Shown: positions 20,274 to 36,662 of the stretch, in pieces
How the letters are laid out: each line of letters begins with the position of its first letter
Position numbering within the stretch: the first letter of the stretch is position 1
DNA from: Tagaea sp.
Lineage (GTDB): Bacteria; Pseudomonadota; Alphaproteobacteria; CACIAM-22H2
Direction: 5' to 3'
Length of the DNA: 64,000 nt
Assembly (NCBI GenBank): GCA_965279525.1
Contig: CBDIIB010000002.1
Location: forward strand, 352,001-416,000
Notes under the pieces: generated by a model
What the model was told of the DNA's origin: nothing
The model's database searches: none
What the model saw: only the letters and a program-made list of their open reading frames with translations
Program-made: the position numbers and the translations under genes

Positions 20274-20274
20274 T

Positions 20275-20312
20275 GTATCAATCCTCTCAACGAGCGATGT
20301 GAGGAATGATAC
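20275..20312. promoter_or_regulatory. Imperfect inverted repeat over the resolvase RBS (res/operator candidate)
   Basis: GTATCAATCCTC...GAGGAATGATAC flanking TCAACGAGCGATGT. Confidence 0.45.
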
Positions 20313-20717
20313 GGAAGGTACGCTACTCGCGCAATTGCCTTTCTGCCAATTTCTACGTGCTCTGAAACGGCAAAGCGACGTTACGACTTCTCCGGCCAAT
20401 CTTACTGCCCGGTCGTCATTTGTCGCATAGGCGCACCAAGACGCCTGCTGGGTAAACCGGCTCGATGGCATATGGGACGTGCAATATGTCGGATGTATCG
20501 CCGATACAGTCAGCTTCAATTTTCCGTAGAGGCCATGCTCATAGGCGATAGAACGTCTAGCGCTAACTGTGAGCGCTAATAATTCTGTGGCCCTACCCAC
20601 TTTGGGGGACGCCCCCCGTCCCGCTCGGCTGGAAGCCTCTAGATCGCCGAAGCGATTTTATGTAATTTTTGGTGTTTAAAAAAAAGTTCTCGCAATTTTC
20701 AATTTCGGAAATGAAAA

Positions 20718-21548
20718 ATGCAAATCGGTGACGACAAGCAAGAATTAGATAGTAGGGCACCACTTGCATGTTCCCCAGCGCCTGATGACAGGGGGCTAAA
20801 AAAATTTCGAACAGCCATCGTCACGATAATTTCGAAAAAAATTCGGAAGAGCGTTGAAGATCGGGCATTCCGGGAATGGAAAACCAGATGGACTGCAAAG
20901 GAACTCGCAGAGCAAGAGAAAGACTGGGAGGCGCAAGAAATCGCCCGCGAAGAACGGGCCGAAACTGAACGCCAAGTGGAGCAGGATAAAGCAGAGCAAG
21001 TTCAATTGCTGTTTTTGAAAGCTTATAGTGCCGAAAACAATGCAACGCCGATTGAAAGTACCGCCGCAAGGCATGCGAGCGAGGTAGCGGGGAATGCAGA
21101 TAGTGAGCGTGAGTTTGAAAGTCTCTGGCTAAGTGCCTTCGATGCGGAGTTTTCTAGAGCGACTGATTCCGAGAGCCGCGCTTACGCAGAAGCGCGTTCA
21201 AATTGGGTCAAGCGACTATTGATTGAGCCTGGTGAATCGCTGCTAGGAATGATGATAATTTTTCTAGTTGGCGCCTATGTGATCGGACTTAGCAATGGCA
21301 TCTATCGTGCCATGCAGGCCGAAGCAAGCTATGGCGATCTTGCCAACGGCGTTGTTGCGGCATACGGCACACTTGGAAGCATATTCATCTATGCACGCCG
21401 TATCGACGCAAATCAGAAAAAGAAAGAAGAAGAGTACAAAGAATTAGTCGATATCAGAGAAAAGTATAAGAGTGAGAAGCGGGATGGTTTGTTGATAGGT
21501 GCAAAAATGAAGTGGAGAGGGAGAAAAGCAAATGCACACCTTCGTTGA
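20718..21548 (+). CDS. Hypothetical coiled-coil protein with two TM segments
   Basis: E/Q/K-rich helices; hydrophobic segments LLGMMIIFLVGAYVIG and VVAAYGTLGSIFIY. Confidence 0.7.
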   Translation: MQIGDDKQELDSRAPLACSPAPDDRGLKKFRTAIVTIISKKIRKSVEDRAFREWKTRWTAKELAEQEKDWEAQEIAREERAETERQVEQDKAEQVQLLFLKAYSAENNATPIESTAARHASEVAGNADSEREFESLWLSAFDAEFSRATDSESRAYAEARSNWVKRLLIEPGESLLGMMIIFLVGAYVIGLSNGIYRAMQAEASYGDLANGVVAAYGTLGSIFIYARRIDANQKKKEEEYKELVDIREKYKSEKRDGLLIGAKMKWRGRKANAHLR

Positions 21549-21750
21549 GCTGATCGCGATGCTCCTATTTCTCCCGGTAGGCATGTTCATTTGTGTTGCA
21601 GTTACGATGGAAGTTATAATGCGCGATCCAAAGCGATATGAGTCAGGCTCTGGCGCATTGCTAGGATACTCGACGATAATTGGATCAGCATTTGCTTTGA
21701 ATATTGCTTTTACAGGCGGGTCTGCACTCTTGCGTGCTATTTTTGAGTGA
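21532..21750 (+). CDS. Small two-TM membrane protein
   Basis: 72 aa with two hydrophobic stretches; overlaps the previous gene; GGAG RBS. Confidence 0.6.
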   Translation: MHTFVELIAMLLFLPVGMFICVAVTMEVIMRDPKRYESGSGALLGYSTIIGSAFALNIAFTGGSALLRAIFE

Positions 21751-22972
21751 TGGCCGGATATGTAAGCTTTTCGATTGCGTGCTTCCGCATTTCTAACGTC
21801 GATTTTCCGCTGTATGTGCTTCCCGTCAATGTGGATCGTTCATGCCCAACTATATCTTGGACAGTGCTTTCTGGGACGCCGGCGCGCTCTAGAAGCGTAA
21901 TAACAGTTCCACGAAAACTATGGAATGTATGGCGCGGTCCAAAATTTAGGGATCGCTTAAGTCGCGTGAATCGCTTTCCAAGGATGTCGCCACGATCACC
22001 ATTCTTATTCGGAACCAAACCGGAGATTAGAAATCCGTCCTTGGATTTCTTGGTTAGGCGCTTAATGGTTGTACTCAACTCACTATGAATGGGTACGATT
22101 CGAATTCCAGCTTCTGTTTTTGCATCAATGATTTCAAACCGGTCACGAAGAATATTCTCGACCTTTAGGCTGCAAAGCTCTTCACGGCGTGCGCCGCTAT
22201 ACATGGCCAGTCGCACTAGGTCGCAAAGCTGCGGGTCTGGCGCTGCGGTGGATAGCAACAGCGCAACCTCTTTGGGGCTATAGGGAAGCCAAGAAGCCGA
22301 TTTGACCTTAAGGCCTAGGCGATCAAACGGAGCGCTGTCTTCCGGCGCGGCTTCAATGGCTTCCAAGTATGCCCAATACGTTCGGCAATCGCTCATTAGG
22401 CGTTTTACGGTCGCAGGCGCGATCGATTGCAGCAGCTCAGGAACCCAGCGCCGAACCTCTTTGCGTGTGATGTCTTGTATGTTCGGAAATTTGACAGTCA
22501 GCCTTGCTATGGTAGCGCGACGCATGGCCGCTGTTTTGCCTTTGACCTGGAGGGAGCCAATCCACTCATCGAGATATTCGTCGGTTGCAGAAATTGCGCC
22601 GGTCGCTGCCGCGAAGAACTGAATTGCTTCAGGATTAGTCGATGGCCTATCGCCAATTTGATCAACGTTGGAAGCGCCGATGTCCCATGCCACAGCGTCA
22701 ATCTGCTCTAGGACCCGCGCTCGGTCTTCCGGCGTCTTTGTTCGCCGAAGTGCATCGCGCCAGAATTTTGAGTCGTTGTGATTTGGCTCTTCCCGGAGCC
22801 GTGCAATTTCCGCTTTCCATTGGGCAACTAGAGGCGCCGCCCTGCGGAGTGCCACAGCTCTGCTATCAGTCTGAAGGGTCTGCCGGAAGACTCGGCGGCG
22901 CGCCCGTTTGCGAACGTCGGCCGGTACGTCTAGATATGCGAAATAAGTTCGATGCCTAAGCTCTATCGGCAT
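21737..22972 (-). CDS. int: Tyrosine integrase with DUF6538-like N-terminus (island 2)
   Basis: TYFAYLDVPADVR N-terminus; SGARREE, AKT, FHSFR, VGHE, TY. Confidence 0.93.
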   Translation of the reverse strand: MPIELRHRTYFAYLDVPADVRKRARRRVFRQTLQTDSRAVALRRAAPLVAQWKAEIARLREEPNHNDSKFWRDALRRTKTPEDRARVLEQIDAVAWDIGASNVDQIGDRPSTNPEAIQFFAAATGAISATDEYLDEWIGSLQVKGKTAAMRRATIARLTVKFPNIQDITRKEVRRWVPELLQSIAPATVKRLMSDCRTYWAYLEAIEAAPEDSAPFDRLGLKVKSASWLPYSPKEVALLLSTAAPDPQLCDLVRLAMYSGARREELCSLKVENILRDRFEIIDAKTEAGIRIVPIHSELSTTIKRLTKKSKDGFLISGLVPNKNGDRGDILGKRFTRLKRSLNFGPRHTFHSFRGTVITLLERAGVPESTVQDIVGHERSTLTGSTYSGKSTLEMRKHAIEKLTYPAITQK

Positions 22973-23320
22973 GGAAAAACCTCTTTTTCCACCAATAACT
23001 ACCACCAATATAACCGTCTAGAAACCCAGTAATATAGATGATACAACGGTTTTCAATTCGTTTTAGTCCCCTCCCCGTGGGGACGCCAGCGCTTCCAGGC
23101 AGAATCGGGAATCTAATTCGAGCCCTCCTTGGGAGCCGTGGTCGGCGCCGCCGCCGATGCTGTTCCATATGTGAGCCGTGTGAACCAATTGCCAGCGAGC
23201 AGTACCCCAATCGCTGTTTCGGCGCTTGACTGGGTTCGCATGAGGTGAATAGTCTGCATAAATCTGCAACCTAAAAGATATGCGGCATTGCACCCTTAGC
23301 AAAAAGAGGGGAACATCGGT

Positions 23321-23866
23321 ATGTCCGGGAAGTCGTCGCTCGTTCTGGCCTTGTCCGCCTTCTTGGTTCTCTCCGCCTGTTCGGCCGCCTACAATAGGCA
23401 GGATACCGGCGGAGCCGAATTTAGCGGCGTCACGCTCGACAAGGCGAAAGCCGTTCTTATCGCCATCCCAGCTGATGGCGCCTATGGCGGAAAGCCGTAT
23501 CTCGGTTCCGGGCAGATGGTTGCCCAGCAGGTGGCGGCGGCGTTCGCTAGATACGCCCAGAAAGTGGACATGGCGCCATCCAACGCCGCCGACAGAACGG
23601 CGTTAGTGGACGCCGCGAAGAAGGGGGGATTTGGCTATATCGTGATGCCCGTGATTGCCCACTGGGAGCACCGTGCAACGGCGTGGTCCGGTATACCTAG
23701 CCGTGCATCCGTCGGCGTTTCCGTGCTCGACGGCCAGACAGGAGACAAGCTTCAGTCAAGCAGCCTTGAGGGGCGGAGCCGCATCGTCAGCTGGACTTCA
23801 ACCAGCCCTGAGTCACTGTTGCCAGACATGATCACCGGATACGTCAACGCCCTGTACGGTCGTTGA
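23321..23866 (+). CDS. DUF4823-like lipoprotein
   Basis: Lipobox LSAC; P.DG.Y....Y.GSG and HWE.RAT.WSG.P motifs. Confidence 0.75.
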   Translation: MSGKSSLVLALSAFLVLSACSAAYNRQDTGGAEFSGVTLDKAKAVLIAIPADGAYGGKPYLGSGQMVAQQVAAAFARYAQKVDMAPSNAADRTALVDAAKKGGFGYIVMPVIAHWEHRATAWSGIPSRASVGVSVLDGQTGDKLQSSSLEGRSRIVSWTSTSPESLLPDMITGYVNALYGR

Positions 23867-24127
23867 GGCCCGGCAGATATCTTTCGCCAATCCGGATGCG
23901 CCCCAGCCTTGGTTCTTTGCCAATTCGTGCGCCGCGCTGACGCTCATCTTCTCGCTGACGAAGACTGGATATGAGAACGATAGCCTTGTTCATGACGGCG
24001 ACTTTTTAGGAAGTGAAAGTCGATCGTGCCGTACGAATCTTCAAGCTATAGCCTAGGTCAAGTTAACCAAAGCTCCCAATAGTTCTCACCAATTTCATCG
24101 TCGGCACGCCAGCTTTCGAGGCCTGCG

Positions 24128-25243
24128 CTATTTATCCGTCGGCGCCGGCGCGTCGCGCGCCATGAGTTCGTCGAGCGCCGTGCGGAGCGTCGAGATCCGG
24201 CGCACGCTGGCCGACCAGTCGGCAAACCGGGCATAGTTGTTGACGAACCAGCTCAGCGTATCCTGGACCGTGATGAAGGCCGCGGTCGCCTGCATCAGGC
24301 CGCCCAGCGTGATGACGTACGCGAAGTAGTCCGGTGCGGCGATCAGGACCGGAATGCCGGTCGCGAGGATCGCGTAGCCGGACGTCATGAAGCTGAGGCT
24401 CCGGGTGCGCAGCATGAGCTGGCGCCACGTGACGATTACGCTCGCGAAGCTGTCGCCCAGTCTGCGCCGGTCGTCGTCGGTGCAGTCGGGCAGCGCTTCA
24501 TCGGGGCCGGTTTCGCTGATCTTCTGGAGATCAAGCCGGAAGCAGGCTTCGTTGCTGAGCTTCTCCTGGTTGAGAGTCACGAGCGGCCGGCCGAGCAGAT
24601 AGGTCAGCGCCGTTCCGACCGCGGCATAGGCGAAGGCCGCCCACACGAGGTAGCCGGGGACCGAGATGTCGACATAGGGCGGGTAGGCGATCTTCAGCGC
24701 GCCGGAGAGCGTCCAGAGGACACCGACGAAGCTGATGAGCTGCAGGGTCGCGCGGAAAATGCCTTCCGCGAAATCGACCGCACCCTCGGCGGCGATGCGC
24801 ACGTCCTCCGATATCCGCTGGTCGGGATTGTTGTGCGTCAGCCCCATCCGTGCCAGCTCGGCATTGCGCCCCTGTGCGAGCCAGTCAGAAACGAGTCGGT
24901 TCGTTATCCAGGCGCGCCACTCGACCTGGATGCGCATCTTTGTGAACATGTTGTAGCCCGAAAGGGCGAGGAACGACGTCGCCAGAGCGGCAAACACGCC
25001 GACCTGATGCAGCACGCCGACTGTGTCGCGCTGTTCGATCGCGTTGAAGACCGCCCCGCTCCAGACGTTCAGGAGCAGTTGGACGACGACCTGTGCAACC
25101 GCAAGCACGGCGAGCAGCAACGCAAGACCGCGCATCCGCCAGCGCCGTTCGCCCGAGAAGACCGCGCCGCCGATCTGCCAGTATCTGTGGACGGGAGAGC
25201 CGAAATGGGGAGGCGCTTCTGGCTCGTTTACGCAAGCCGTCAT
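24128..25243 (-). CDS. SbmA/BacA/YddA-type transporter membrane domain, no ATPase
   Basis: WRAWIT..L...WL, NPDQRISED, ISFVGVLW.LSG, ITLGGLMQ; ends before any NBD. Confidence 0.85.
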   Translation of the reverse strand: MTACVNEPEAPPHFGSPVHRYWQIGGAVFSGERRWRMRGLALLLAVLAVAQVVVQLLLNVWSGAVFNAIEQRDTVGVLHQVGVFAALATSFLALSGYNMFTKMRIQVEWRAWITNRLVSDWLAQGRNAELARMGLTHNNPDQRISEDVRIAAEGAVDFAEGIFRATLQLISFVGVLWTLSGALKIAYPPYVDISVPGYLVWAAFAYAAVGTALTYLLGRPLVTLNQEKLSNEACFRLDLQKISETGPDEALPDCTDDDRRRLGDSFASVIVTWRQLMLRTRSLSFMTSGYAILATGIPVLIAAPDYFAYVITLGGLMQATAAFITVQDTLSWFVNNYARFADWSASVRRISTLRTALDELMARDAPAPTDK

Positions 25244-25425
25244 GGAGCCCTGGTGCTGCGGACGGCGTGCGGCAGATAGCGCACGATCCGGCCGAGGAGA
25301 CCGCGTCGCTCGCTGCTGTCGGCCGCGGGAAGCGAGCGGCTCCAGGCGAGAAGCCGCGTCGCGTCTTCGCGTGCGGCCTCGACTTCGGTCAATGTCGGCC
25401 AGATCGCTTCGTCGGGTCTTCCCAT
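25240..25425 (-). CDS. Small hypothetical protein
   Basis: Translationally coupled on both sides (TGATG and ATGA). Confidence 0.5.
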   Translation of the reverse strand: MGRPDEAIWPTLTEVEAAREDATRLLAWSRSLPAADSSERRGLLGRIVRYLPHAVRSTRAP

Positions 25426-25637
25426 CAGAAGATGCGGCGACCGAACAGCGTCATCAGCGCGCCGCCGACAATCGAAACGGTACCGCCGACCATGTACCAG
25501 ACGATCCGGTCGGTGTGGCGACCGGTCAGCGCCATCGTCACTTCATCGAGCGGGGCATTCGACTCGCCATAGGCAAGCCAGAGGAGGACGGCGCCGAGTG
25601 CGAAGAGTGCGCCACCGGCGATCTGGGTCGGGTTCAT
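25425..25637 (-). CDS. DUF3185-family membrane protein
   Basis: MNPTQIAG..L...G.VLL..AY..SNAP.DEV...LTGR.TD..VWY. Confidence 0.8.
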   Translation of the reverse strand: MNPTQIAGGALFALGAVLLWLAYGESNAPLDEVTMALTGRHTDRIVWYMVGGTVSIVGGALMTLFGRRIF

Positions 25638-25672
25638 TCTAGTTTCCTTTTCCGATTTTCGGATTCGAAGTT

Positions 25673-26317
25673 TCAGGTTTGTGCGGTCAGGGCCCGGACA
25701 TAGCGCCGTTCGACTTCCTGCCAGTCGATATTGCGCATGAACGCATCGACGTACTTCGGTGCGGCAGCGCCATAGTCGATCTGGTATGCATGCTCGTACA
25801 TGTCGAGCACCAGCAGCGGCACGCCGGCGGCGATGCCTTGCGTGTGATCGCTGGCCCAATGGTTGCGCAGCGTCCGGGTATGGAGATTGTAGACGAGAAC
25901 GCACCAGCCTGACCCGCCTGCAAGCGACAGGCCTGTCCGCCGGAACTCGGCCTCCCAATTCGCGAAGGTCCCGAAGGCCGCAGCGAGTGCGTCGACGATC
26001 GTCCCGGCCGGCTTGCCGTCACCGCCGAGATTTCCGAAATAGCAGTCGTGAAGGACGATCGAGCCGGTGCGATGGAGTTCTTCGCGCTTCAGTCCAGAAT
26101 AAAGGACCGGCGGAAAATCGACGTCGCGCAACGCGCCATCGAGATGCTCCTCGACGAGATTCAGCCCGTTGACCGATGCGACATAGTTGTTCTTCCAGTG
26201 GGAGAGAAGGAGCTTGACGGACAGACCCTCGCAACGCGACGGATCGAAGGCGAGCGGGCGGGGTGCATGCGCGCCCGCGAAGGCCGGCGGCCGGCGTGTG
26301 GCGGACTGGCCGTCCAT
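25673..26317 (-). CDS. Fe/Mn superoxide dismutase (ChrC-like)
   Basis: SHWKNNY, LHDCYF, GGSGW, LDMYEHAY; metal ligands H/H/D/H present. Confidence 0.88.
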   Translation of the reverse strand: MDGQSATRRPPAFAGAHAPRPLAFDPSRCEGLSVKLLLSHWKNNYVASVNGLNLVEEHLDGALRDVDFPPVLYSGLKREELHRTGSIVLHDCYFGNLGGDGKPAGTIVDALAAAFGTFANWEAEFRRTGLSLAGGSGWCVLVYNLHTRTLRNHWASDHTQGIAAGVPLLVLDMYEHAYQIDYGAAAPKYVDAFMRNIDWQEVERRYVRALTAQT

Positions 26318-26700
26318 CAGCTCTTTTCCGGCGCGCGCCAGTAGCTCGGCGCCTTGTAATAGTCGTCCACCGTGCGCCCGTAATCGGGCGTCCATTCGAA
26401 ATCCGATCCCGTCGAATAGGTCGGCGCACCGACGAGCTTTTCCTTGTCGAGATCGACCACGTAGCCGCCCTTCGCCTCGTCGTAGTTCAGCGTCGCCCAG
26501 GGGAGCGGATGGTATTTCTCGCCCATGCCGAGAAAGCCGCCGAAAGACATGACCGCGTAGATCGCGCGGCCGGAGACCTTGTCGATCATGATGTCGTCGA
26601 CGCTGCCGAGTTTCTCGCCCGCCACGTTGTAGACGTTGGTGCCTTCGACCTTGTCGGCGGCGATCAGGGTTCCGGTCGTAATCGAAGTGTCCTCGGTCAT
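26317..26700 (-). CDS. PRC-barrel domain protein
   Basis: LIAADKVEGT.VYN..GEKLG....MIDK.SG...YAVMSFGGFLGMG..YHPLPW. Confidence 0.92.
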   Translation of the reverse strand: MTEDTSITTGTLIAADKVEGTNVYNVAGEKLGSVDDIMIDKVSGRAIYAVMSFGGFLGMGEKYHPLPWATLNYDEAKGGYVVDLDKEKLVGAPTYSTGSDFEWTPDYGRTVDDYYKAPSYWRAPEKS

Positions 26701-26761
26701 TCTGGCGTTCCTTTGGTTTGCTCGCCGGACAGTAGCCGTCCGCGGCAGCCGACCGCGAGAC

Positions 26762-26776
26762 TCGGAAACTACCTAG
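26762..26776 (-). promoter_or_regulatory. FixJ-like box 1, CTAGGTAGTTTCCGA
   Basis: 27 bp upstream of TACTGT (26729-26734), ahead of the PRC-barrel operon. Confidence 0.7.
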
Positions 26777-26786
26777 ACGCGCTTCT

Positions 26787-26801
26787 CTAAGTAGATTCCG
26801 A
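26787..26801 (+). promoter_or_regulatory. FixJ-like box 2, CTAAGTAGATTCCGA
   Basis: 27 bp upstream of TATGGT (26829-26834), ahead of the csbD/BON unit. Confidence 0.7.
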
Positions 26802-26871
26802 TCCTTCCGGCCCGCCATCGCCGACGCCTATGGTCGCCGGAATGGGACGCTTCACTCGAAAGGGGCATCAC

Positions 26872-27063
26872 ATGGAAATGGAATACGGTCCGTTCGGCGT
26901 CGCCAACCTGATCGCCGATGCCGGTCGTGGCATCGCGCACGCGTGGAGTGCCGCGACGGGCAGCGAAAAGCTGACGTGGATGCTGCTCATCGCCGCATTT
27001 CCGGCAGTGGCATATGCCGTCTGGCGCCTGGCCGGACGACACGGCCCTCGGCACTACGGCTGA
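26872..27063 (+). CDS. Small single-TM hypothetical protein
   Basis: AAAGGGG RBS; 63 aa with WMLLIAAFPAVAYAVW. Confidence 0.55.
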   Translation: MEMEYGPFGVANLIADAGRGIAHAWSAATGSEKLTWMLLIAAFPAVAYAVWRLAGRHGPRHYG

Positions 27064-27097
27064 GCATCAAATCGAAACGACAACGTGGAGACAGTCG

Positions 27098-27283
27098 ATG
27101 GACAAGGACCGCATCAAAGGCTCGCTCAAGCAGATCACCGGCGGCATCAAGGAAGCGGCCGGCAAGCTTCTCGGCGACAAGAAGACGGAGACGGCCGGCA
27201 AGATCGAGAAGGCGGACGGTGCCGTCCAGAATGCCATCGGCGGAATGAAGGACAGCATCCGCGAGACGATGGGAAAGAAATAG
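27098..27283 (+). CDS. csbD: CsbD family stress protein
   Basis: MDKDRIKG..KQ..G.IKE.AGK..GD.K....GK.EK..G.VQN.IGG.KD. Confidence 0.92.
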   Translation: MDKDRIKGSLKQITGGIKEAAGKLLGDKKTETAGKIEKADGAVQNAIGGMKDSIRETMGKK

Positions 27284-27321
27284 TGCCCAACTCATACAGC
27301 CAGAACTGGAGTCAGAAAGTC

Positions 27322-27636
27322 ATGATCAACACAAGATCGGTTCTCAATGCCACTTTTGCGGGCTTGCTTGCACTTTCGATCGTCGGCTGTGCCGGAACCA
27401 GCACCACGTCAAGCGCCGGCGAATATATCGACGACTCGGTGATCAGCAATACGGTCCGCTCCCAGGTGATTGCCGACAAGGACCTGAAGCTCACCCAGAT
27501 CGACGTCGAGACCTTCAAGGGCGTCGTCCAGCTGAGCGGCTTCGTCGACACGCAGGCCGCCAAGTCGCGCGCCGGCTGGGTCGCCGGCGGCGTCAACGGC
27601 GTCAAGCAGGTCCATAACAACCTGATCGTCAAATAA
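27322..27636 (+). CDS. BON-domain lipoprotein
   Basis: Lipobox IVGC; GEYIDDSVI..V...I.VETFKGVVQLSGFV. Confidence 0.92.
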   Translation: MINTRSVLNATFAGLLALSIVGCAGTSTTSSAGEYIDDSVISNTVRSQVIADKDLKLTQIDVETFKGVVQLSGFVDTQAAKSRAGWVAGGVNGVKQVHNNLIVK

Positions 27637-27655
27637 CGTACCGATCAGGCGGACA

Positions 27656-27697
27656 GACGGAAAAGCCCGGCACGCATGCGTGCCGGGCTTTTCCGTC
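27656..27697. terminator. Perfect 42-bp palindrome; bidirectional terminator
   Basis: GACGGAAAAGCCCGGCACGCA|TGCGTGCCGGGCTTTTCCGTC between the convergent BON and OmpA genes. Confidence 0.85.
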
Positions 27698-27747
27698 GTG
27701 GCAGGTGGCGTTGCCGGCCCGTCGTGGCGACGGACCGGCGAAGCCGA

Positions 27748-28221
27748 TCAGTTGAACAGCTTCACGACGGTGATGTCGACGACGCGGTTGCGACGGTCTG
27801 CGGCATCGTCGGCCGTGGCGACTTCCTGCTTGGTCTCGCCGGTCCAGGTCGTGTCGATACGGCCGGAGGGCACGCCCGCCGCGATCAGTGCGCTGCGGAC
27901 AGTGTCCGCACGGCGCTGCGACAGGATCATGTTGGCCGACTGGGTGCCGACGCGATCGGTCTTGCCGATGACGTTCACGCGGGTGGTCGAGTTGTTCGTC
28001 ACGACATAAGCGACGTTGCGGACGATCGTCCGGCCGCGGTCGCCGATTTCGGTGCTGTTGGTGTCGAAATAGATCTCGTACCAGGCGCCGGCGAGTTCGG
28101 GGCCGGCGACCGAGGCGACCGGTGCCGATGCAGTTGCAGCCGGCTGCTGCGTGCAGGCGGCTCCCATTGCGAGTGCGAGCGTGGCGACGAAGGCGCGTGC
28201 GATCGTGGAATGCGATGTCAT
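27748..28221 (-). CDS. OmpA-family lipoprotein
   Basis: Lipobox GAAC; IYFDTNS, V.GKTDRVG...N..LSQRRAD.V, RNRVV. Confidence 0.9.
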   Translation of the reverse strand: MTSHSTIARAFVATLALAMGAACTQQPAATASAPVASVAGPELAGAWYEIYFDTNSTEIGDRGRTIVRNVAYVVTNNSTTRVNVIGKTDRVGTQSANMILSQRRADTVRSALIAAGVPSGRIDTTWTGETKQEVATADDAADRRNRVVDITVVKLFN

Positions 28222-28258
28222 TGGATTCTCCGTTCTCTGATGTTGGGATGCAGCTGGC

Positions 28259-28501
28259 TCAGCGCCAGATGGGTCGTCCGAGATTGATCTGCTTTTCGTT
28301 GGTCAGCGCACCGGTGCCACCGCCGACGGCGCCGCCGATCAGTGCGCCTTCGAGAGGTGCCCCGACCATCAGCCCGCCAAGCAGGCCGACGCCGGCACCG
28401 ATGCCGGCACCGGATGCGGCGCGATCACCGGTCGTGTTCCCGCATGCCGCGAGTGTAAGAAGCAGTGCCAGAAGCACCGCCGAGTTCCTTGTCCGATTCA
28501 T
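28259..28501 (-). CDS. Glycine-zipper lipoprotein
   Basis: LAACG.T.GDRA.SGAGIGA...GALIGGAVG...GALT....INLG.P.W. Confidence 0.85.
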   Translation of the reverse strand: MNRTRNSAVLLALLLTLAACGNTTGDRAASGAGIGAGVGLLGGLMVGAPLEGALIGGAVGGGTGALTNEKQINLGRPIWR

Positions 28502-28534
28502 GTTCTGTCTCCGGTTGGTTCGAAAGCGCGGATT

Positions 28535-29011
28535 TCAGCGCGGGATGCACTGGAAGGTCGCCGTCTTCGACCCGTTCGCGTTCATGCCGATGTTCGAGAC
28601 AGTCTGCTGCTGTCCGCTGTTCGAGCAGTAAAGCTGGGCATTGCGGGACCCATCGAGAAGCTCCTGGTCCGTCCGATAGGTGTAGGACAGGTTCTGATTG
28701 GCCTGCGCCATCTGGGGAGCCATCGGACCGGCCGGGACACAGTCGAATACGACGCTGCGGCCGCCGTTCGCCTCGTTGGCGAAGCGCACGGTCTGCGGTA
28801 CCGATTGATAGCGGTTGCAGAACATCGAAGCGCTCTGGTTGGCCTGGATGAGTTCGGAATCGCTTGTGTAGGTGTAGGTGACGCTTGGATTGGTCGCCTT
28901 GACCTGCATGGGTGCCGAACTCTGAGGCGTGCAGGCTGCCACGGCGAGGCCTGCCACGATCGCGGCCGCGAAGGCACCCGCTGTACGCGCATGTCCGAAT
29001 AGGATCGACAT
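28535..29011 (-). CDS. Lipoprotein with two tandem Cys-containing repeats
   Basis: Lipobox VAAC; VTYTYTSDSEL..C..FDC and LSYTYRTDQEL..C..FQC; GGGAGA RBS. Confidence 0.75.
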   Translation of the reverse strand: MSILFGHARTAGAFAAAIVAGLAVAACTPQSSAPMQVKATNPSVTYTYTSDSELIQANQSASMFCNRYQSVPQTVRFANEANGGRSVVFDCVPAGPMAPQMAQANQNLSYTYRTDQELLDGSRNAQLYCSNSGQQQTVSNIGMNANGSKTATFQCIPR

Positions 29012-29115
29012 CGGGATTTCTCCCTTTCATTGTTTGTTTGTTTTCGGGCTACAAGCCGGTCTCGGGCTTGGCCTGATGCTGCGACTTTATGAGTCTGTCG
29101 CCTGGCGCGGTAGGA

Positions 29116-29130
29116 TCGGAATCTACCTAG
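29116..29130 (-). promoter_or_regulatory. FixJ-like box 3, CTAGGTAGATTCCGA
   Basis: 26 bp upstream of TAAAGT (29084-29089). Confidence 0.7.
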
Positions 29131-29135
29131 GGTTT

Positions 29136-29300
29136 TCAGATCCGCCCGAGCAGGATCAGGACGATCACGATGATCAGGATCGTGCCGAGTACCCCGACGC
29201 CGCCGTGCCCGAATCCGTACCCGTAACCGCCGAAGCGGCCGCTGAAACCGCCGAGCAGGAAGATGACGAGGATGATGGCGAGAATGGTGCCGAGCGACAT
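29136..29300 (-). CDS. DUF3309-family small membrane protein (absent from ORF track, 54 aa)
   Basis: MSLGTILAIILVIFLLGGFSGRFGGYGYGFGHGGVGVLGTILIIVIVLILLGRI. Confidence 0.88.
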   Translation of the reverse strand: MSLGTILAIILVIFLLGGFSGRFGGYGYGFGHGGVGVLGTILIIVIVLILLGRI

Positions 29301-29391
29301 TGCAGGAATTCCTTGATGTGGGTGGCGTGCCGCCGGCCAGCCCGGGGTTCGCGCGCGCTTATATCGCGCGGCGTCCGGTCGGCGGCCAGCC

Positions 29392-29406
29392 CCGGAAACT
29401 ACTCAG
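29392..29406 (-). promoter_or_regulatory. FixJ-like box 4, CTGAGTAGTTTCCGG
   Basis: 28 bp upstream of TATAAG (29358-29363), ahead of DUF3309. Confidence 0.6.
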
Positions 29407-29963
29407 GGGCCGAAGGCGGACAGGAACGCGATCGGGTCGGCCCGGATGACGGCAGCATGCGTGTCGATCCGTGCCGCGTCGGACGCCACGAACACGCCAC
29501 GCGCATGTGCGAAATCCGGGCTGGTGCCATGCGCAATGACGATGTATCCGTCCGCCTTCACGGCGAACTCGTACTGGACCACGCTGTCGCTCGGGATTCC
29601 GATCCCGGATAGCGCGATTCCGATCGCATTCGATCCGCCGGTGCGGTTCGCGTCGTCGACGGCCGACATCGCCCTCGTCGCGAGGCTCCCGAGCACGATG
29701 ACATGGCCGACGGCCGGCACGGTCACGAACAGGCCACCCGAAAACAGGCTCCAAAGACGCGCCCAGAACGCACCGCGTTCGCCCCAGAAGCGGACTTTCC
29801 CTCCGGTGTCGAAAAAGCCGACGGCCTTGTCGCCCCGGTCGTAGGCTTTCCCGAGAACGCTGAGGGAATCGACCGCAAACCCCTCCTGCGTGAGGCGCCG
29901 CACGGCAACCTCGGCGGCCCCATGGTCGGCGAAAACGGCGATGACCGAGCCAGATGCATGCAT
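29403..29963 (-). CDS. General stress protein (17M/DUF1269-like) membrane protein
   Basis: VIAVF.DH..AE.AV..L...GF....LS..GK.Y...FWG..GAFW..LW..., IGIP.DSV.QYE..VKAD. Confidence 0.8.
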   Translation of the reverse strand: MHASGSVIAVFADHGAAEVAVRRLTQEGFAVDSLSVLGKAYDRGDKAVGFFDTGGKVRFWGERGAFWARLWSLFSGGLFVTVPAVGHVIVLGSLATRAMSAVDDANRTGGSNAIGIALSGIGIPSDSVVQYEFAVKADGYIVIAHGTSPDFAHARGVFVASDAARIDTHAAVIRADPIAFLSAFGP

Positions 29964-30059
29964 TTTTCGCCCTCGAGACGGGAATCGAATGACGGTTCCA
30001 CATCGCCGTACGTCGAACCGGGCAACCATCTAGACCTCGATGCGGTCTCCGGGCGAGCA

Positions 30060-30074
30060 TCGGAATCTACCTAT
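30060..30074 (-). promoter_or_regulatory. FixJ-like box 5, ATAGGTAGATTCCGA
   Basis: 27 bp upstream of TAGATG (30027-30032). Confidence 0.6.
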
Positions 30075-30174
30075 ACCCAGTTCACGCGACCGGACCCTCG
30101 ATTTACGCCTTCGGGGCGCGGATGCGTGATAGCTTTCCTCGAATGACATTCCGCGCGCCGACCTACACGGATCG

Positions 30175-32439
30175 ATGACTGCAATGCGCGGCACAAAGTC
30201 CCCGTCGATTGGCAAGGTGCCGCTGGCGCAGATGGGACAGGCGGCTGATCGACGCACGATGGCGAACGATCTGCGGAACGTCCTCTACAGCACAGATGTC
30301 GCGACGATCTTTCTGGATACGTCATTGAACATCCGCCTCTTCACGCCGGCCACGACGGCGCTCTTCCGTGTGGTTCCGGACGATATCGGGCGGCCGCTGG
30401 CCGATCTGCAGTCGCTGGCTTCGGATGCGACGCTGCTGGCCGACGCACATGCCGTGCTGGCGGACCTGACGCCGATCGAACGGGAGATCGGTGCTGCGAG
30501 CGGTGCCTGGTTCATCCGGCGGGTCCTGCCGTGCCGCGCGCCGGACGACGCGGTCGAGGGCGTGGTCATCACGTTCACGGACGTAACGGAGAGAAAACTT
30601 ATCGCACTTGCACTGGAGGCGGCGAAGCACCAGGCCGAGCAAGCGAATATCGCCAAGTCGCGCTTTCTTGCTGCGGCAAGCCACGATCTTCGTCAGCCGC
30701 TGCAGACGCTCGCGTTGCTCCAGGGATTGCTCGCGAAAACTGCCGACGCGACGAAAATGCAGAAACTTGTCGTGCGGCTCGACGAAGCGCTGGCCACGAT
30801 GTCGGGCATGCTCAATACGCTCCTCGACATCAACCAGATCGAAGCCGGGATCGTGAAGGCCGAGATCGCCCGGTTTCCGGTCGACGCACTCCTCGACCGG
30901 GTTCGGGAGGAGTACGCGGACCAGGCGGAATCCGACGGATTGAAGCTCAGGGTCGTCGGGTGCGGCGTGTTGGTCGCGAGCGACAGGCACCTGCTCGAGC
31001 AGATGCTCCGCAATCTCGTCTCGAACGCGCTCAAATACACCAAGCGTGGCAAGGTCCTGGTGGGCTGCCGCCGTCGGGCCGGCCTGTTGAGCATCGAAGT
31101 CTGGGATACGGGCATCGGCATCCCGGCGACGGAGCTCGAAGCGATCTTCGAAGAGTACCATCAGCTCGGCAATGTCGCACGGCAGAGAAGTCTCGGCCTT
31201 GGCCTCGGCCTGTCGATCGTGAAGCGTTTGAGCTTGCTCCTCAAGCACAAGATCCGTGTGCGCTCGAGATTGGGCGGAGGCTCCGTCTTCGCGATTGATA
31301 TTCCGACGAAGGGCGATTCGGTTCCTGCAGGCATCGCGTCGAGCGTCCGTGACGCGGCTGCCGAAGAAAGTCCGAAAGCCCGGCGAACCGGCACCGTTCT
31401 CGTGGTCGAGGACGATCCGGAAGTACGGGATCTGCTGGAACTCCTGCTTGCCGAGGAAGGCCATCGGGTCGTCACCGCCTCGGATGGAGTCGTCGCACTC
31501 GGGCTCGTCAAGACCGGCAAGGCGCATCCCGACATCGTCCTGGCCGACTATAATCTTCCGAACGGTCTCGATGGACTTCAGACCATCGCGAAGGTCCGCG
31601 AGAGCCTTCGCCGGCTCGTGCCGGCGATTGTCCTGACCGGCGACATTTCGACCGGAGCATTGAGCAATATCGCGCGACACAGCTGCATTCTTCTCAACAA
31701 ACCGGTGAAGACGAAGGAACTGGTGCAGGCCATCCAGCGACAGCTGGGCGGTCTGACGCCCGACGTCGAAGCACCGCAAGCGACTGGCAGGGGCGCAAGC
31801 GGTCCGGAACGTGCGGTCGTTTACGTCGTCGACGATGACGATGGCGTGCGCGGCGCATTGCGAAGTGTGCTCGAGGCGGATGGACATGCTGTCGAGGACT
31901 ACGGCAGCGGCGAGTCGTTCCTGGCGGCATTCCGCCCCGGCGGCGAAGGCTGCCTGCTGGTGGATGCCCATCTGCCCGGAATGAGCGGACTCGAGCTTCT
32001 GCAGCATCTGCGCGCCGCCGGCAGCCGGCTTCCGGCGATCATGATAACGGGTGGCGGCGATATCTCGATGGCCGTGGAAGCGATGAAGGCCGGTGCCGCC
32101 GACTTCGTCGAGAAGCCGATCGGCGCTGCCGATCTTTCCGCAAGCGTGGAAAGGGCTCTCGATCGGTCGAAGGATTCGAACAAGCTTGCGGCTTGGCTGA
32201 CGAGCGCAAGCGATCAGGTCTCCAGCCTGAGCAGCCGCCAGCGCCAGATCATGGACATGGTCCTGGCTGGCCATCCCAGCAAGAACATCGCTGCGGATCT
32301 CGCCATCAGCCAGCGCACGGTCGAAAACCATCGTTCGGAGATCATGAAGCGGACCGGGGCGAAGTCGTTGCCCGAGCTCGCCCGACTGGCGCTTGCCGCG
32401 GCACAGGACAAGCGCGAGGCGCCGGCAGGCCGGGAATAG
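30175..32439 (+). CDS. Hybrid sensor kinase/regulator PAS-HisKA-HATPase-REC-REC-LuxR HTH
   Basis: ASHDLRQPL H-box; NLVSNA, DTGIG, GLGLGL; two REC domains (ADYNLP, VDAHLP); FixJ-like HTH SKNIAADLAISQRTVENHR. Exact start uncertain. Confidence 0.9.
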   Translation: MTAMRGTKSPSIGKVPLAQMGQAADRRTMANDLRNVLYSTDVATIFLDTSLNIRLFTPATTALFRVVPDDIGRPLADLQSLASDATLLADAHAVLADLTPIEREIGAASGAWFIRRVLPCRAPDDAVEGVVITFTDVTERKLIALALEAAKHQAEQANIAKSRFLAAASHDLRQPLQTLALLQGLLAKTADATKMQKLVVRLDEALATMSGMLNTLLDINQIEAGIVKAEIARFPVDALLDRVREEYADQAESDGLKLRVVGCGVLVASDRHLLEQMLRNLVSNALKYTKRGKVLVGCRRRAGLLSIEVWDTGIGIPATELEAIFEEYHQLGNVARQRSLGLGLGLSIVKRLSLLLKHKIRVRSRLGGGSVFAIDIPTKGDSVPAGIASSVRDAAAEESPKARRTGTVLVVEDDPEVRDLLELLLAEEGHRVVTASDGVVALGLVKTGKAHPDIVLADYNLPNGLDGLQTIAKVRESLRRLVPAIVLTGDISTGALSNIARHSCILLNKPVKTKELVQAIQRQLGGLTPDVEAPQATGRGASGPERAVVYVVDDDDGVRGALRSVLEADGHAVEDYGSGESFLAAFRPGGEGCLLVDAHLPGMSGLELLQHLRAAGSRLPAIMITGGGDISMAVEAMKAGAADFVEKPIGAADLSASVERALDRSKDSNKLAAWLTSASDQVSSLSSRQRQIMDMVLAGHPSKNIAADLAISQRTVENHRSEIMKRTGAKSLPELARLALAAAQDKREAPAGRE

Positions 32440-32511
32440 TCTCTCGACCGCGATCGATCCCCGGGCCGTACTGGACGTCAAGGGCATCGGGCGGCGATAC
32501 TCGGGAGTATC

Positions 32512-33216
32512 ATGAAGCTGTCTCGTCGGAACTTCGGGATGGGGATGCTCGGCGCGCTGGCCGGAATCCCGTCGCGCGCGCCCGCACAAGGTGGCGATGT
32601 CGACATGTTGCTCGTCCTGCTGAATGACGGTTCGGGCTCGATCGACGCGGACGAGTACCGGCTGCAGCGCGAAGGGACGGCATCGGCACTCGAACGGCCG
32701 GAGATCCTGCAGGCGATCGCACGTCTGCCGACGCGCTCGATCGCTGTCGCTTACGGCGAGTGGGGCTCGCCTGGTGCGCCGCAGGTCATCGTGCCGTGGA
32801 TGCGCATCGCGGGTCCCGAGGATGCAGAGCGCTTTGCAGGTCTGCTTGTCGCCGCCCCGCGGCATTTCCAGAGCTGGAACGCGATCGGCGACGGGCTCGC
32901 GGTCGCGACCGACCTGATCCGGGACGCTCCTTTCCGTGCCGCGCGCGCGAAGATCGACATCGCAGGCGACGGACCGGACATGCGCGGCCTGATGCCCGCG
33001 GCCGCGGCCCGCGATCGCGCGGTTGCGGCCGGCATCACGATCAACGCGCTTGCCATCCAGTCCGAAGGGTCGGGGCCGGCAATGCGGCTGACAAATCTGC
33101 GCGCACACTACGAGGACCACGTGATCGGCGGACCGGGCGCTTTCGTCGCAACCGCCCGAGATCGGATCGATTTTGCCTATGCGATTTTCAACAAGATGGT
33201 GCGCGAGCTTTCCTGA
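32512..33216 (+). CDS. DUF1194 (vWA-like) protein with Tat signal
   Basis: SRRNF; DGSGSID..EY.LQ.EG; IDIAGDGP; GITINAL; VIGGPGAF. Confidence 0.88.
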   Translation: MKLSRRNFGMGMLGALAGIPSRAPAQGGDVDMLLVLLNDGSGSIDADEYRLQREGTASALERPEILQAIARLPTRSIAVAYGEWGSPGAPQVIVPWMRIAGPEDAERFAGLLVAAPRHFQSWNAIGDGLAVATDLIRDAPFRAARAKIDIAGDGPDMRGLMPAAAARDRAVAAGITINALAIQSEGSGPAMRLTNLRAHYEDHVIGGPGAFVATARDRIDFAYAIFNKMVRELS

Positions 33217-33220
33217 CCCG

Positions 33221-34060
33221 TCATCGCGCGGCCGGAAGTCCGAGCAGTTCGCGGGTGATGCGGCCATCCGGCGACTGGAGCTCGTCCAGGATCGTGAAAT
33301 GATCTGCACCTGGGACGGGGACGAGGTTGCCTGCGGCATGGGACGCCGCGCGCCGCGCGTGCATCGCCCGGCTGTCGGCGACCAGTCGCGGCAACTCTGC
33401 CGTTCCGTAGGCGAACACCATCGGCTTGGCGACCACCGGAAGGCGCAGCGGTGAAAGCGTTTCGACCTCGACGTCGGTGAGCTTCAGCTTCTCGTCGAGA
33501 TACGTGTCGCGGATCGGGCCCAACTCGAATACGCCGGAGATTGATAGGCCTGCGCAGACGCGGGCGTGGTCGAGCGCCATCGCCGTCAGATGTCCACCGG
33601 CCGACCAGCCGCTCAGGACGATCGGCCCCGCAATGCCATGTGCCGGCCCCTCGGCCGCCATCCAGTCGAGCGCCGCGCGGATCTCGGCGACAATTTCGGT
33701 CAGCGTCGCATCGGGTGCAAGTGTGTAGCCCGGAAATGCCGCCGCCCAGCCATGCGCCATGACGCCTTTGGCCAGCACGCTGATCGCTTCCCGGCTGTTG
33801 CGCTGCCAGTAGCCGCCGTGGATATAGACCAGGCACGGCGCATCGGCCGAGGCGGCGGGGAACAGATCCCAGCGGTTTCGCTCGCGCGGACCGTAGGGAA
33901 GGTCGAGGCCCTTGGGATGTCTGGCGCGGAACTCGGCCGAGGCCGCCGCCCGCTCGGCGAGAATGCGCCCGCTTTCCTTGACGGCTGCCGTGTTGTTGTA
34001 GGCCGCATCGCGCGCCGGGCGCGAGAGGCGGGCCCAGTCGTCACCGGTCCCCGGCGTCAT
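33221..34060 (-). CDS. Alpha/beta hydrolase, arylformamidase-like
   Basis: HGGYWQ, GWSAGG, GADHF. Confidence 0.85.
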   Translation of the reverse strand: MTPGTGDDWARLSRPARDAAYNNTAAVKESGRILAERAAASAEFRARHPKGLDLPYGPRERNRWDLFPAASADAPCLVYIHGGYWQRNSREAISVLAKGVMAHGWAAAFPGYTLAPDATLTEIVAEIRAALDWMAAEGPAHGIAGPIVLSGWSAGGHLTAMALDHARVCAGLSISGVFELGPIRDTYLDEKLKLTDVEVETLSPLRLPVVAKPMVFAYGTAELPRLVADSRAMHARRAASHAAGNLVPVPGADHFTILDELQSPDGRITRELLGLPAAR

Positions 34061-34830
34061 GCAGCACTTGCCGCCTTGCCGTGATGGGAATGGAGCTGTG
34101 CTGACAGCACGCGCCGCAGTTCGTTGAACTCGGGCGAGGAGACGTCGCGCGGACGCGGCAGGCCGATCCGGTTATCCGACACGATGCGTCCGGGCCCCGG
34201 GGACATGACCACGACCCGGTCGGCGAGGAAGATCGCCTCCTCGATCGAATGCGTGACGAAGATGACCGTAAGTCCCGTCTTTGCCCAGAGTTCGAGCAAT
34301 TCGTCCTGCAGCCGTTCGCGGGTCATCGCGTCGAGCGCGCCGAAGGGTTCGTCCATCAGCACGACGCGCGCGTCGTTGGCGAGCACCCGGGCGATCGCCA
34401 CGCGCTGTTTCATGCCGCCCGAAAGCTGATGCGGAAAGGCGTCGGCGAACTTGCGCAGTCCCACCACTTCGATGAAACGGTCGACGATCTCGGTGACCTT
34501 CGCGCGCGGCAGGCCGCGCGCCGCGGGGCCGAAAGCGATATTCTGCCGCACCGACAGCCACGGGAAGAGGCCATAGTCCTGGAAGACCATGCCCCGGTCC
34601 GGACCCGGCCCACCGACCGGACTTCCGGCCATCAGGACCTGGCCTTCGCTCGCCGCCTCGAAGCCCGCGACGATCCGCAGCAATGTCGATTTGCCGCAAC
34701 CCGAAGCACCGATGAGGCAGACGAACTCGCCCTGGTCGATCGCGAGATTGGCGCGCTCGAGCGCGACGATCTCGCCGGCCGGGCCGTCGAACCGCTTGGT
34801 GACGTAGTCGACGCGGATCAGTTCAGCCAT
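34057..34830 (-). CDS. NitT/TauT ABC transporter ATPase
   Basis: GASGCGKST, LSGGMKQR, MDEPFGALD. Confidence 0.93.
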   Translation of the reverse strand: MAELIRVDYVTKRFDGPAGEIVALERANLAIDQGEFVCLIGASGCGKSTLLRIVAGFEAASEGQVLMAGSPVGGPGPDRGMVFQDYGLFPWLSVRQNIAFGPAARGLPRAKVTEIVDRFIEVVGLRKFADAFPHQLSGGMKQRVAIARVLANDARVVLMDEPFGALDAMTRERLQDELLELWAKTGLTVIFVTHSIEEAIFLADRVVVMSPGPGRIVSDNRIGLPRPRDVSSPEFNELRRVLSAQLHSHHGKAASAA

Positions 34831-35608
34831 GTTGTGGGCTCCAGCGCAGCAGACGCTTGCCGAGCATCTGGACAGCCTTGTCGGAGAGATAACCGGCGAT
34901 CCCGATCACGATCATTCCGGCAATGACGATCTCGGTGCGCGACAGCTGGCGCGCATCCATGATCATGGCGCCCAAGCCCGTCTGTACGCCCGTCATCTCG
35001 CCGACGACGATGACGACCCACGAGAAGCCGAGTCCGAGCCGCAGCCCCGTGAAGATGCCGGGCATCGATGCAGGCAGCACGACCTTGAAGAACATGGCGG
35101 CCGGCCGTATCCCCAGCATCGAGGCCGCCTCGAACAGGCGCGGCTCGACGCTGCGCACGCCGAAGATGGTGTTGACGAGGATCGGATAGAACGCGCCGAG
35201 TGCGACGAGGAAGAATGCCGAACGCGGCCCGAGGCCGAAGACGATCATCGACAGCGGCAGCCACGCCGTGACCGGCACGGGCCGCAGGAGCTGGAACATC
35301 GGATCGAGCAGGTCGCGGGCGAGGGGGAGACGCCCGATGAGCATGCCCAGCGGCAGCGCCAATGCCGCCGCCATCAGGAACGCGCCGTAGACCCGGCTTG
35401 CCGACGCCAGCAGGTGCGTCAGCAGCGTGCTGCTGAACGCATCGTCGTAGACACCCCCGACCGCGACGTCGAGCATGATCACCGCCACCTCCCTGGGCGG
35501 CGGGATCAGCCCGTGGGGCGAGTTGAGCGTCCCGAGCCACCAGCCGAATAGGCAAAGGCCCGGTATCGCCGCCGCAAGCAGCGCGCGTCTTGCGTCAAAG
35601 CCGTGCAT
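34823..35608 (-). CDS. NitT/TauT ABC permease
   Basis: LRPVP..AWLPL; EAASMLG loop. Confidence 0.92.
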   Translation of the reverse strand: MHGFDARRALLAAAIPGLCLFGWWLGTLNSPHGLIPPPREVAVIMLDVAVGGVYDDAFSSTLLTHLLASASRVYGAFLMAAALALPLGMLIGRLPLARDLLDPMFQLLRPVPVTAWLPLSMIVFGLGPRSAFFLVALGAFYPILVNTIFGVRSVEPRLFEAASMLGIRPAAMFFKVVLPASMPGIFTGLRLGLGFSWVVIVVGEMTGVQTGLGAMIMDARQLSRTEIVIAGMIVIGIAGYLSDKAVQMLGKRLLRWSPQHG

Positions 35609-35624
35609 ATCTATTCGCCGGTGC

Positions 35625-36575: not shown

Positions 36576-36621
36576 GGGTGATCTCCTTGGATTGGCGGCG
36601 GAATTCTGTGCCCGCTTTTTA

Positions 36622-36637: not shown

Positions 36638-36662
36638 CGGGCATCCGGCAATCCAGGTGGCG

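Follow-up and report, generated by a model that had tools for sequence, protein, structure and literature searches.

A stretch of 64,000 nucleotides from Tagaea sp. (Alphaproteobacteria; assembly GCA_965279525.1, contig CBDIIB010000002.1, positions 352,001 to 416,000), hereafter the window, contains five copies of a DNA box with the core GTAGWTTCCG. They lie upstream of small stress and envelope genes, next to a gene for a hybrid histidine kinase that ends in a FixJ-type DNA-binding module. The boxes are real and conserved, and they mark an accessory genome-wide regulon that is present in several lineages. From the sequence we consider it likely, with a probability of roughly 70%, that the FixJ-type module occupies the box at about -45 and, once the fused PAS_10 kinase has phosphorylated its receiver, switches on sigma-70 promoters whose -35 element is weak.

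The genome has 4.35 Mb in 5 contigs (66% GC), and the window is part of a 459-kb contig. The initial annotation had pointed to five 15-mers, each directed toward its gene and followed by a hexamer starting with TA. All five are present, at 26762-76 (-), 26787-801 (+), 29116-30 (-), 29392-406 (-) and 30060-74 (-), and all are directed toward the adjoining gene. The hexamers TACTGT, TATGGT, TAAAGT, TATAAG and TAGATG stand 27, 27, 26, 28 and 27 bp past the 15-mers of boxes 1 to 5; counted from the G of GTAG, they start at +39, +39, +38, +40 and +39. The boxes, the -10-like hexamers and the candidate regulator gene are as follows.

26755..26776, minus strand: box 1, CTAGGTAGTTTCCGAGTCTCGC, directed at the PRC-barrel operon
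26729..26734, minus strand: -10-like hexamer TACTGT of box 1
26787..26808, plus strand: box 2, CTAAGTAGATTCCGATCCTTCC, divergent partner of box 1
26829..26834, plus strand: -10-like hexamer TATGGT of box 2
29109..29130, minus strand: box 3, upstream of the lipoprotein / Gly-zipper / OmpA-like operon
29084..29089, minus strand: -10-like hexamer TAAAGT of box 3
29385..29406, minus strand: box 4, upstream of the DUF3309 gene
29358..29363, minus strand: -10-like hexamer TATAAG of box 4
30053..30074, minus strand: box 5, upstream of the YflT-like gene and divergent from the regulator gene
30027..30032, minus strand: -10-like hexamer TAGATG of box 5
30175..32439, plus strand: candidate regulator, 754 amino acids, with the Pfam domains PAS_10, HisKA, HATPase, REC, REC and GerE (LuxR) in this order

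The degenerate 15-mer with at most two mismatches has six matches in the window against a shuffle mean of 1.3, and six matches were reached in none of 100 dinucleotide-preserving shuffles. The sole match besides the five boxes, at 52837-52851 (+), was rejected as a sixth site: it has two mismatches, lies within coding sequence and is not followed by the downstream CT. The earlier statement that the window holds no other copies is thus correct. The divergent pair of boxes 1 and 2 is kept at seven other loci in six genomes of the genus, with the box starts 31-39 bp apart.

The 15-mer and the hexamers were recognized correctly in the initial annotation, but the motif runs further in the 3' direction, with CT at +14/15 and a frequent C at +18. 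The full motif is T-R-G-GTAG-W-TTCCG-R-NN-CT-g-n-C, followed by a TAnnnT -10 element 38-39 nt past the first G. The extended pattern GTAGWTTCCGNNNCT has 12 matches in the genome, whereas the reversed control has one. The shorter word GTAG[AT]TTCC has 32 matches, 20 of which fall within the 18% of the genome left uncovered by gene calls, which were crude and based on GC content at third codon positions. A position weight matrix trained on 11 unambiguous sites retrieved further sites, in which GTAG is replaced by GTAT or GTAC. The regular expression GTA[GTC][ATC][TA]TCCG...CT then yielded 26 matches in the same genome and 44 in 14 loci of relatives. Six own-genome matches (C4 874879, C5 194802, C5 667044, C5 666678, C5 1016111, C3 321329) were left out as coding or implausible.

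The final alignment contains 64 gap-free sites, many of which are orthologous and hence not independent. GTA, TTCCG and CT are invariant in it by construction. At positions that were not imposed, T occurs at -2 in 49 of the 64 sites, A or G at -1 in 63, A or G at +11 in 60, and C at +18 in 48. The TAnnnT element starts at +38 in 18 sites and at +39 in 17 (35/64 together), while its background frequency at +38 or +39 alone is 0.3%; in the own genome taken separately, it is found at +37 to +39 in 10 of the 26 matches to the regular expression. Strict dyad symmetry of the box was considered and rejected, as pairing is limited to A3/G4 with C14/T15.

Short words containing A and T are conspicuous in a genome with 66% GC, and a dispersed repeat or a chance likeness with no regulatory role might look like this. 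This explanation is refuted by the shuffles, by the reversed control and by the fixed position and orientation of the boxes relative to the genes and to the -10 element. In addition, the box is kept before genes of the same families in relatives while the flanking sequence diverges. We regard it as practically ruled out.

If the hexamer is taken as the -10 element, GTAGWTTCCG would occupy approximately -49 to -40 and CTgnC would stand at the place of the -35 element, with a spacer of 18-19 nt. No canonical sigma-70 promoter was found by a consensus scan of the region 25300-30300 (the terminator search of the same scan overlooked the hairpin 27656-27697). A fixed distance between box and -10 element combined with a weak -35 element is what we observe, and a box upstream of a weak -35 is the usual layout of activator-dependent promoters. 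Reading the box itself as a -35 element of the extracytoplasmic function (ECF) sigma type was rejected: there is no conservation 16-17 nt downstream, and the conserved -10 element is 28 nt off.

The initial annotation had called the box FixJ-like, and this was borne out. Selection experiments with FixJ (SELEX, systematic evolution of ligands by exponential enrichment) gave the site classes GTAGTTTCCC and GTAMGTAG, and the FixJ site of the fixK promoter is TAAGTAATTTCCCTTA, according to the available excerpts of PMC4999443. The high-affinity FixJ site quoted in the annotation agrees with the SELEX class in these excerpts. Compared by eye, nine of ten bases of the box are shared with the consensus GTAGTTTCCC, and box 2 shares 11 of 16 bases with the fixK site, which has TAAGTA-n-TTCC in common with the site here. 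On the other hand, position 10 is C in the FixJ box as quoted there and G in all credible sites here, and the 3' half is CTTA there and NNN-CT here. On these excerpts, the box here is a predicted site related to the FixJ box but not the same. The canonical fixJ loci that were retrieved carry the canonical box, e.g. CTAAGTAATTTCCCTTAG directly past fixJ in locus L105.

The bound module could also act in the opposite direction, as a repressor or anti-activator, so that the stress genes would be on when the regulator is inactive. FixJ-type proteins can repress: in Rhodopseudomonas palustris unphosphorylated FixJ represses nifHDK, according to the accessible part of a 2026 report (PMC13327599). 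However, the box is placed ahead of the -35 region and not over the -10 element or the start, the -35 is poor, and no sigma-70 consensus promoter is present. The known FixJ site is placed similarly, upstream of and abutting the -35 region: in the excerpts of PMC4999443, FixJ activates the fixK promoter from footprints that span -69/-44 and -57/-31. Repression thus seems very unlikely, and activation by the FixJ-type module is preferred below.

That the adjoining kinase has a FixJ-type helix-turn-helix (HTH), as proposed earlier, is supported by its domain composition and by structural comparison. The REC+GerE module occupies approximately residues 540-754. Among solved structures, the closest relative of this tail is full-length FixJ, 5xso (E 1.4e-40), followed by StyR. 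The GerE domain (Pfam E 6.5e-17, residues 683-739) aligns to the FixJ C-terminal domain 1x3u and to full-length 5xso. The receiver is a clear Response_reg match (Pfam E 3e-42), in which D24, D67, T95 and K117 are invariant in nine orthologues, and the recognition helix ISQRTVENHR is unchanged in eight of the nine. Identity of the tail to canonical FixJ loci is about 40-46%.

The binder would thus be a distinct clade of FixJ-family REC+GerE modules, represented here by the C-terminus of the adjoining PAS_10 hybrid histidine kinase. The proposed sequence of events is the following. Firstly, the PAS_10 domain would sense a signal; the CheB/CheR methylation domains of a larger paralogue may also take part. 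Secondly, the kinase would autophosphorylate, and the phosphate would be transferred to the C-terminal receiver. Thirdly, the HTH would occupy GTAGWTTCCG, centred at about -45, directly upstream of the poor -35 (CTgnC) and 38-39 nt from TAnnnT. Finally, sigma-70 RNA polymerase would be recruited to promoters that have no usable -35 element. At least 17 promoters across the genome would respond, forming a stress and envelope regulon with PRC-barrel, CsbD, BON, YflT, DUF3309, Gly-zipper, OmpA-like, M48 peptidase and Zn-dependent alcohol dehydrogenase genes, the cytochrome c/kdp genes and a PAS-HisKA_2 kinase with its receiver.

The arrangement differs from FixLJ not only in the box. There, a separate haem-PAS protein, FixL, is the sensor, whereas here a kinase scoring as PAS_10/PAS_4 is fused to the regulator, often together with CheB/CheR. 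FixLJ acts on fixK and/or nifA, whereas the genes here are stress and envelope genes. No Crp/Fnr or NifA-type domain was found in the scanned genes behind boxes, and no genome-wide fixK search was made. A further likeness, by function only, is to DosR/DevR of mycobacteria, a LuxR-type response regulator of the NarL/FixJ family that also turns on many small stress and dormancy genes through a conserved box. The DosR box is a 20-bp palindrome, and the lineage is unrelated.

The initial annotation had described a hidden, self-contained system of five promoters. This does not hold. At least 17 credible boxed promoters were found in the genome, five in the window and the others on three further contigs, and a further regulator, paralogous to that of the window, has a cluster of its own (locus L001, G000:C4:81000-97000). 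The distance from box to start codon is 50-140 nt. Outside the window, the boxes precede the following genes.

Second cluster, box 1 of four: cytochrome c gene, then kdpA
Second cluster, box 2 of four: PRC-barrel / DUF883-like / membrane protein / Gly-zipper operon
Second cluster, box 3 of four: YflT-like gene
Second cluster, box 4 of four: PRC-barrel gene, then pgaA
Outside both clusters: two further PRC-barrel genes, one of them followed by a TPR-glycosyltransferase gene
Second DUF3309 gene
Another YflT gene, above the Pfam cut-off
M48 peptidase gene
Zn-dependent alcohol dehydrogenase gene
Gene for a 156-amino-acid protein without a family, then a gene for an AsmA-like protein
PAS-HisKA_2/HWE kinase gene with a single-domain receiver (L004, G000:C4:662000-668000; box at 1963, genes at 2090-3576)
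Pentapeptide-repeat protein gene

The targets form one coherent functional class whose members recur as paralogues. Three or four extra sites are doubtful. One of these is a weaker variant, GTATATTCCGCGCCT, at approximately 3737 (-) of locus L009 (G000:C5:342000-347000); it lies about 40 nt upstream of a likely tRNA gene and may be due to chance. In the second cluster, a small cytochrome c gene and kdpA are found behind a box (L001 3987-4405 and 1828-3537, minus strand), which suggests that potassium-uptake genes may belong to the regulon.

The paralogous regulator of the second cluster (L001 7280-11972) is a CheB-CheR-PAS_10-HK-REC-REC-GerE protein of 1,400 amino acids. Over its last 570 residues it shares 62% identity with the window regulator, which does not have the CheB/CheR part. 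The last receiver of the paralogue is broken by a frameshift in a G/C run near L001 11470-11500, whereas the orthologues in G018 and G003 are unbroken; the paralogue may be a pseudogene, or the assembly may be wrong here.

We compared 21 genomes of the genus, including the own genome (G000), counting boxes as exact matches to GTAGWTTCCGNNNCT. Nine of them (G000, G003, G004, G005, G006, G008, G012, G018, G019) encode a REC-GerE module, either fused to a kinase or stand-alone, whose identity to the window tail is 50% or higher. Three further genomes (G001, G002, G009) have a match to the HTH only, with 61-67% identity, and G018 has such a match (56%) beside REC-GerE. The HTH-match proteins scanned with Pfam, those of G018 and G009, are one-component forms with the composition PAS_10-GerE. 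Each of the 12 genomes with the regulator HTH type contains 3-12 boxes, and the other nine (G007, G010, G011, G013, G014, G015, G016, G017, G020) contain none or one. The reversed pattern gave 0-2 matches per genome.

In the relatives, boxes precede the same families: divergent PRC/BON pairs, CsbD, DUF3309, DUF3185, OmpA-like, DUF883-like, ferritin/Dps and PLDc_N. Each of the 12 genomes with the regulator has 2-6 Pfam matches to PRC, and each of the nine others has 0-2. Thus the PRC counts follow the presence of the regulator, and therefore the regulator and its targets have been gained or lost together. Boxes directly flank regulator genes in G003-G006, G008 and G018, and in two genomes of other genera, G098 and G205.

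In the species with stand-alone REC-GerE (L023, L026-L029; G003-G006, G008), the divergent boxed operon encodes a ferredoxin-NAD(P) reductase-like protein, a membrane protein and a multihaem cytochrome c; Pfam assignments were made in L023 only. In G003-G006 and G008 the output from this operon relates to redox and not to stress.

A similar association was observed in independent lineages, in a sample of 300 genomes of other genera of the class, searched with the tail at E<=1e-45. Three or more boxes are present in six genomes: G049 (6), G093 (4), G098 (5), G229 (3), G235 (4) and G279 (8). A tail homologue is present in 26 of the 300, including five of the six box-rich genomes (64, 64, 48, 48 and 65% identity). 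In these five, the homologue is encoded on the contig of the box cluster, inside the cluster or at most about 17 kb away. Among the 274 genomes without a homologue, three boxes occur in one only. In G205, one of its two boxes lies directly past the stop codon of the regulator gene. Named loci from metagenome-assembled genomes (MAGs) with a 55-70% identical tail have full boxes with the -10 element at the same distance; judged by eye, the genes behind these boxes include some for Dps, DUF3309-like, DUF883-like and BON proteins. Two genomes flagged as unpublished, G064 and G264, contribute one tally row each, and no claim is based on them.

This distribution could also be explained if another transcription factor or an alternative sigma factor bound the box, the FixJ-type genes merely travelling with stress islands or being regulon members themselves. 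The joint gain and loss described above is compatible with it, and therefore co-occurrence alone cannot distinguish the binder from a co-inherited passenger; in addition, regulator genes often have a box adjoining them. Several observations argue against it. The box has nine of ten positions in common with an experimentally selected FixJ site, as given in the excerpts of PMC4999443, and the adjoining HTH is FixJ-like. Three architectures, the giant fusion, stand-alone REC-GerE and PAS_10-GerE, have only the HTH type in common, and they go with the same box. The 28 nt between GTAGWTTCCG and the -10 element do not fit a -35/-10 pair of a sigma factor. G015 has only a FixJ-like paralogue, 39% identical, and no boxes. 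We therefore consider a foreign binder unlikely, and the FixJ-type module the better candidate.

Several points nevertheless weigh against regulation by this module. The genus groups were drawn after the listings had been seen, and related genomes are not independent. Outside the genus, the box-rich genome G229 (81% complete) has no homologue match. Conversely, some genomes with a close homologue have few boxes: G080 (62% identity) one, G205 (58%) two, G067 (51%) and G258 (47%) none. The box is asymmetric, with a weak dyad AG-N9-CT, whereas LuxR/FixJ-type proteins usually bind repeats as dimers. The invariant CT may be part of the -35 element rather than of the protein site, and the implied spacer between -35 and -10, 18-19 nt, is long. 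The regulator has two receivers and no Hpt domain, so that the phosphotransfer route is not obvious. The genome has two paralogous regulators, and either may act at a given promoter.

The families found behind the boxes, CsbD, PRC-barrel, BON/OsmY-like, YflT, DUF883-like and Dps, are usually assigned to the EcfG regulon. The system thus resembles the PhyR-NepR-EcfG response in its target families. The mechanism differs: there, a partner switch controls an ECF sigma factor, whereas here an activator and sigma-70-like -10 elements are proposed. The suggestion of the initial annotation that the system is possibly independent of EcfG is plausible and is supported by three observations: no PhyR was found in the 21 genomes of the genus, no NepR match exceeded the cut-off, and EcfG-type promoters are not enriched.

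PhyR was sought with the model NF006623. In the own genome all 40 of 40 candidates were scored, and none exceeded the cut-off; there are only partial matches to the receiver. The result was the same throughout the genus (0/21), while the Caulobacter control was positive and three of four other genera of the family have PhyR. The best match to NepR (PF18557) scores 16 bits (E 0.057), short of the cut-off of 25.7. It was rejected, as it sits in a 352-amino-acid anti-sigma-like open reading frame (ORF) beside an ordinary ECF sigma gene. This locus, L031 (G000:C5:1558338-1561388), encodes at 871-2494 (-) an ECF sigma factor of 181 amino acids and the 352-amino-acid partner, which carries an N-terminal motif twice. 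No other sequence bears even a weak resemblance to the sigma-like half of PhyR.

The consensus of EcfG promoters is GGAAC-N16-17-CGTT. It has 78 matches in the genome, of which 14 are intergenic, close to the 18% uncovered share and thus at chance level. No match was found in the region 20000-38000 of the window, and one was found in the paralogous cluster. Pairs of a HisKA_2/HWE kinase and a receiver feed PhyR in other Alphaproteobacteria; such a pair is boxed here, in a genome in which PhyR was not found. Among five box-rich genomes of other genera that were fully scored, PhyR is present in two and was not found in three; therefore the boxed system can coexist with the classical response. 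In the class-wide tally PhyR was recorded in 46 of 300 genomes with eight candidates scored per genome, and this number is not used to claim that loss of PhyR is enriched in box-bearing lineages.

The genes and other features of the window cluster are as follows.

25425..25637, minus strand: DUF3185 small membrane protein, probably in the PRC-barrel operon
25673..26317, minus strand: protein with the C-terminal domain only of Fe/Mn superoxide dismutase; its start overlaps the stop of the PRC-barrel gene
26317..26700, minus strand: PRC-barrel protein, 127 amino acids, first gene past box 1 (Pfam PF05239, E 5e-16)
26872..27063, plus strand: 63-amino-acid membrane protein, no Pfam match, first gene past box 2, conserved in locus L017
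27098..27283, plus strand: CsbD-like protein (Pfam PF05532)
27322..27636, plus strand: BON-domain lipoprotein (Pfam PF04972)
27656..27697, no strand: bidirectional terminator hairpin where the BON and OmpA-like genes converge, from RNA folding
27748..28221, minus strand: OmpA-family lipoprotein (Pfam PF00691)
28259..28501, minus strand: glycine-zipper lipoprotein (Pfam PF13441, E 1.8e-6, just below the curated cut-off)
28535..29011, minus strand: 158-amino-acid lipoprotein, no Pfam family, first gene past box 3, conserved in relatives
29136..29300, minus strand: DUF3309 small membrane protein (Pfam PF11752)
29403..29963, minus strand: YflT-like membrane protein of the general stress protein 17M type (Pfam PF11181, E 1.3e-4, below the cut-off)

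The YflT paralogue behind another box matches PF11181 above the cut-off (E 1.5e-8). The gene with the superoxide dismutase domain probably belongs to the PRC-barrel operon, because its start overlaps the stop of the PRC-barrel gene. The two genes are translationally coupled, and the same arrangement is found in the relative locus L017. The hairpin at 27656..27697 has a folding energy of -43.5 kcal/mol (z -6.7), and none of 200 shuffles was as good.

A phage-type integrase ORF of 423 amino acids is located at 21737-23008 (-), some 3 kb away from the stress cluster. The region 15000-36000 of the window yielded no tRNA gene, and a search of a plasmid collection gave no match to the region 26300-32500. 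An island origin of the cluster is possible, because the regulon is accessory in the genus.

The regulator belongs to a large protein family. Among 8,000 candidates scored, at least 1,499 proteins of 414-1,320 amino acids have a related tail at E<=1e-20. In the best 120 of the 1,499 the tail is 60-100% identical, and these proteins contain PAS_10, HisKA, HATPase, REC and GerE, many of them with CheR and CheB in addition. In their sources they are named 'two-component system CheB/CheR fusion protein' or 'FixJ family two-component response regulator'. Both the window protein and its 1,400-amino-acid paralogue are members of this fusion family, although the window copy has no CheB/CheR. The literature searched, with subscription journals largely outside it, contained no function, DNA site or regulon for the family. 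Searches combining the target families (DUF3309, PRC, DUF883, YflT) with LuxR, or FixJ/LuxR with stress, retrieved no paper on such a regulon, and a search for the 9-mer retrieved unrelated primer and miRNA papers only.

A predicted DNA site, promoter architecture and regulon are thus offered for a signalling family of at least 1,499 relatives for which that literature describes no function. The FixJ-type module would serve stress and envelope genes here, rather than the control of oxygen responses or nitrogen fixation. Tentatively, FixJ-type PAS_10 regulators may have replaced PhyR-NepR-EcfG as the master regulator of the general stress response in about half of the species of the genus, a non-orthologous replacement by a DNA-binding kinase fusion. 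More broadly, and equally tentatively, the CheB/CheR fusion kinases common in soil Alphaproteobacteria may be one-protein pathways whose output is this stress regulon, reached through GTAGWTTCCG. If so, sensing, methylation-based adaptation, kinase, receiver and DNA binding would follow one another within a single protein. In an alphaproteobacterial genus in which no PhyR was found, typical general-stress genes stand behind a different predicted switch, and the organisation of the stress response becomes directly testable.

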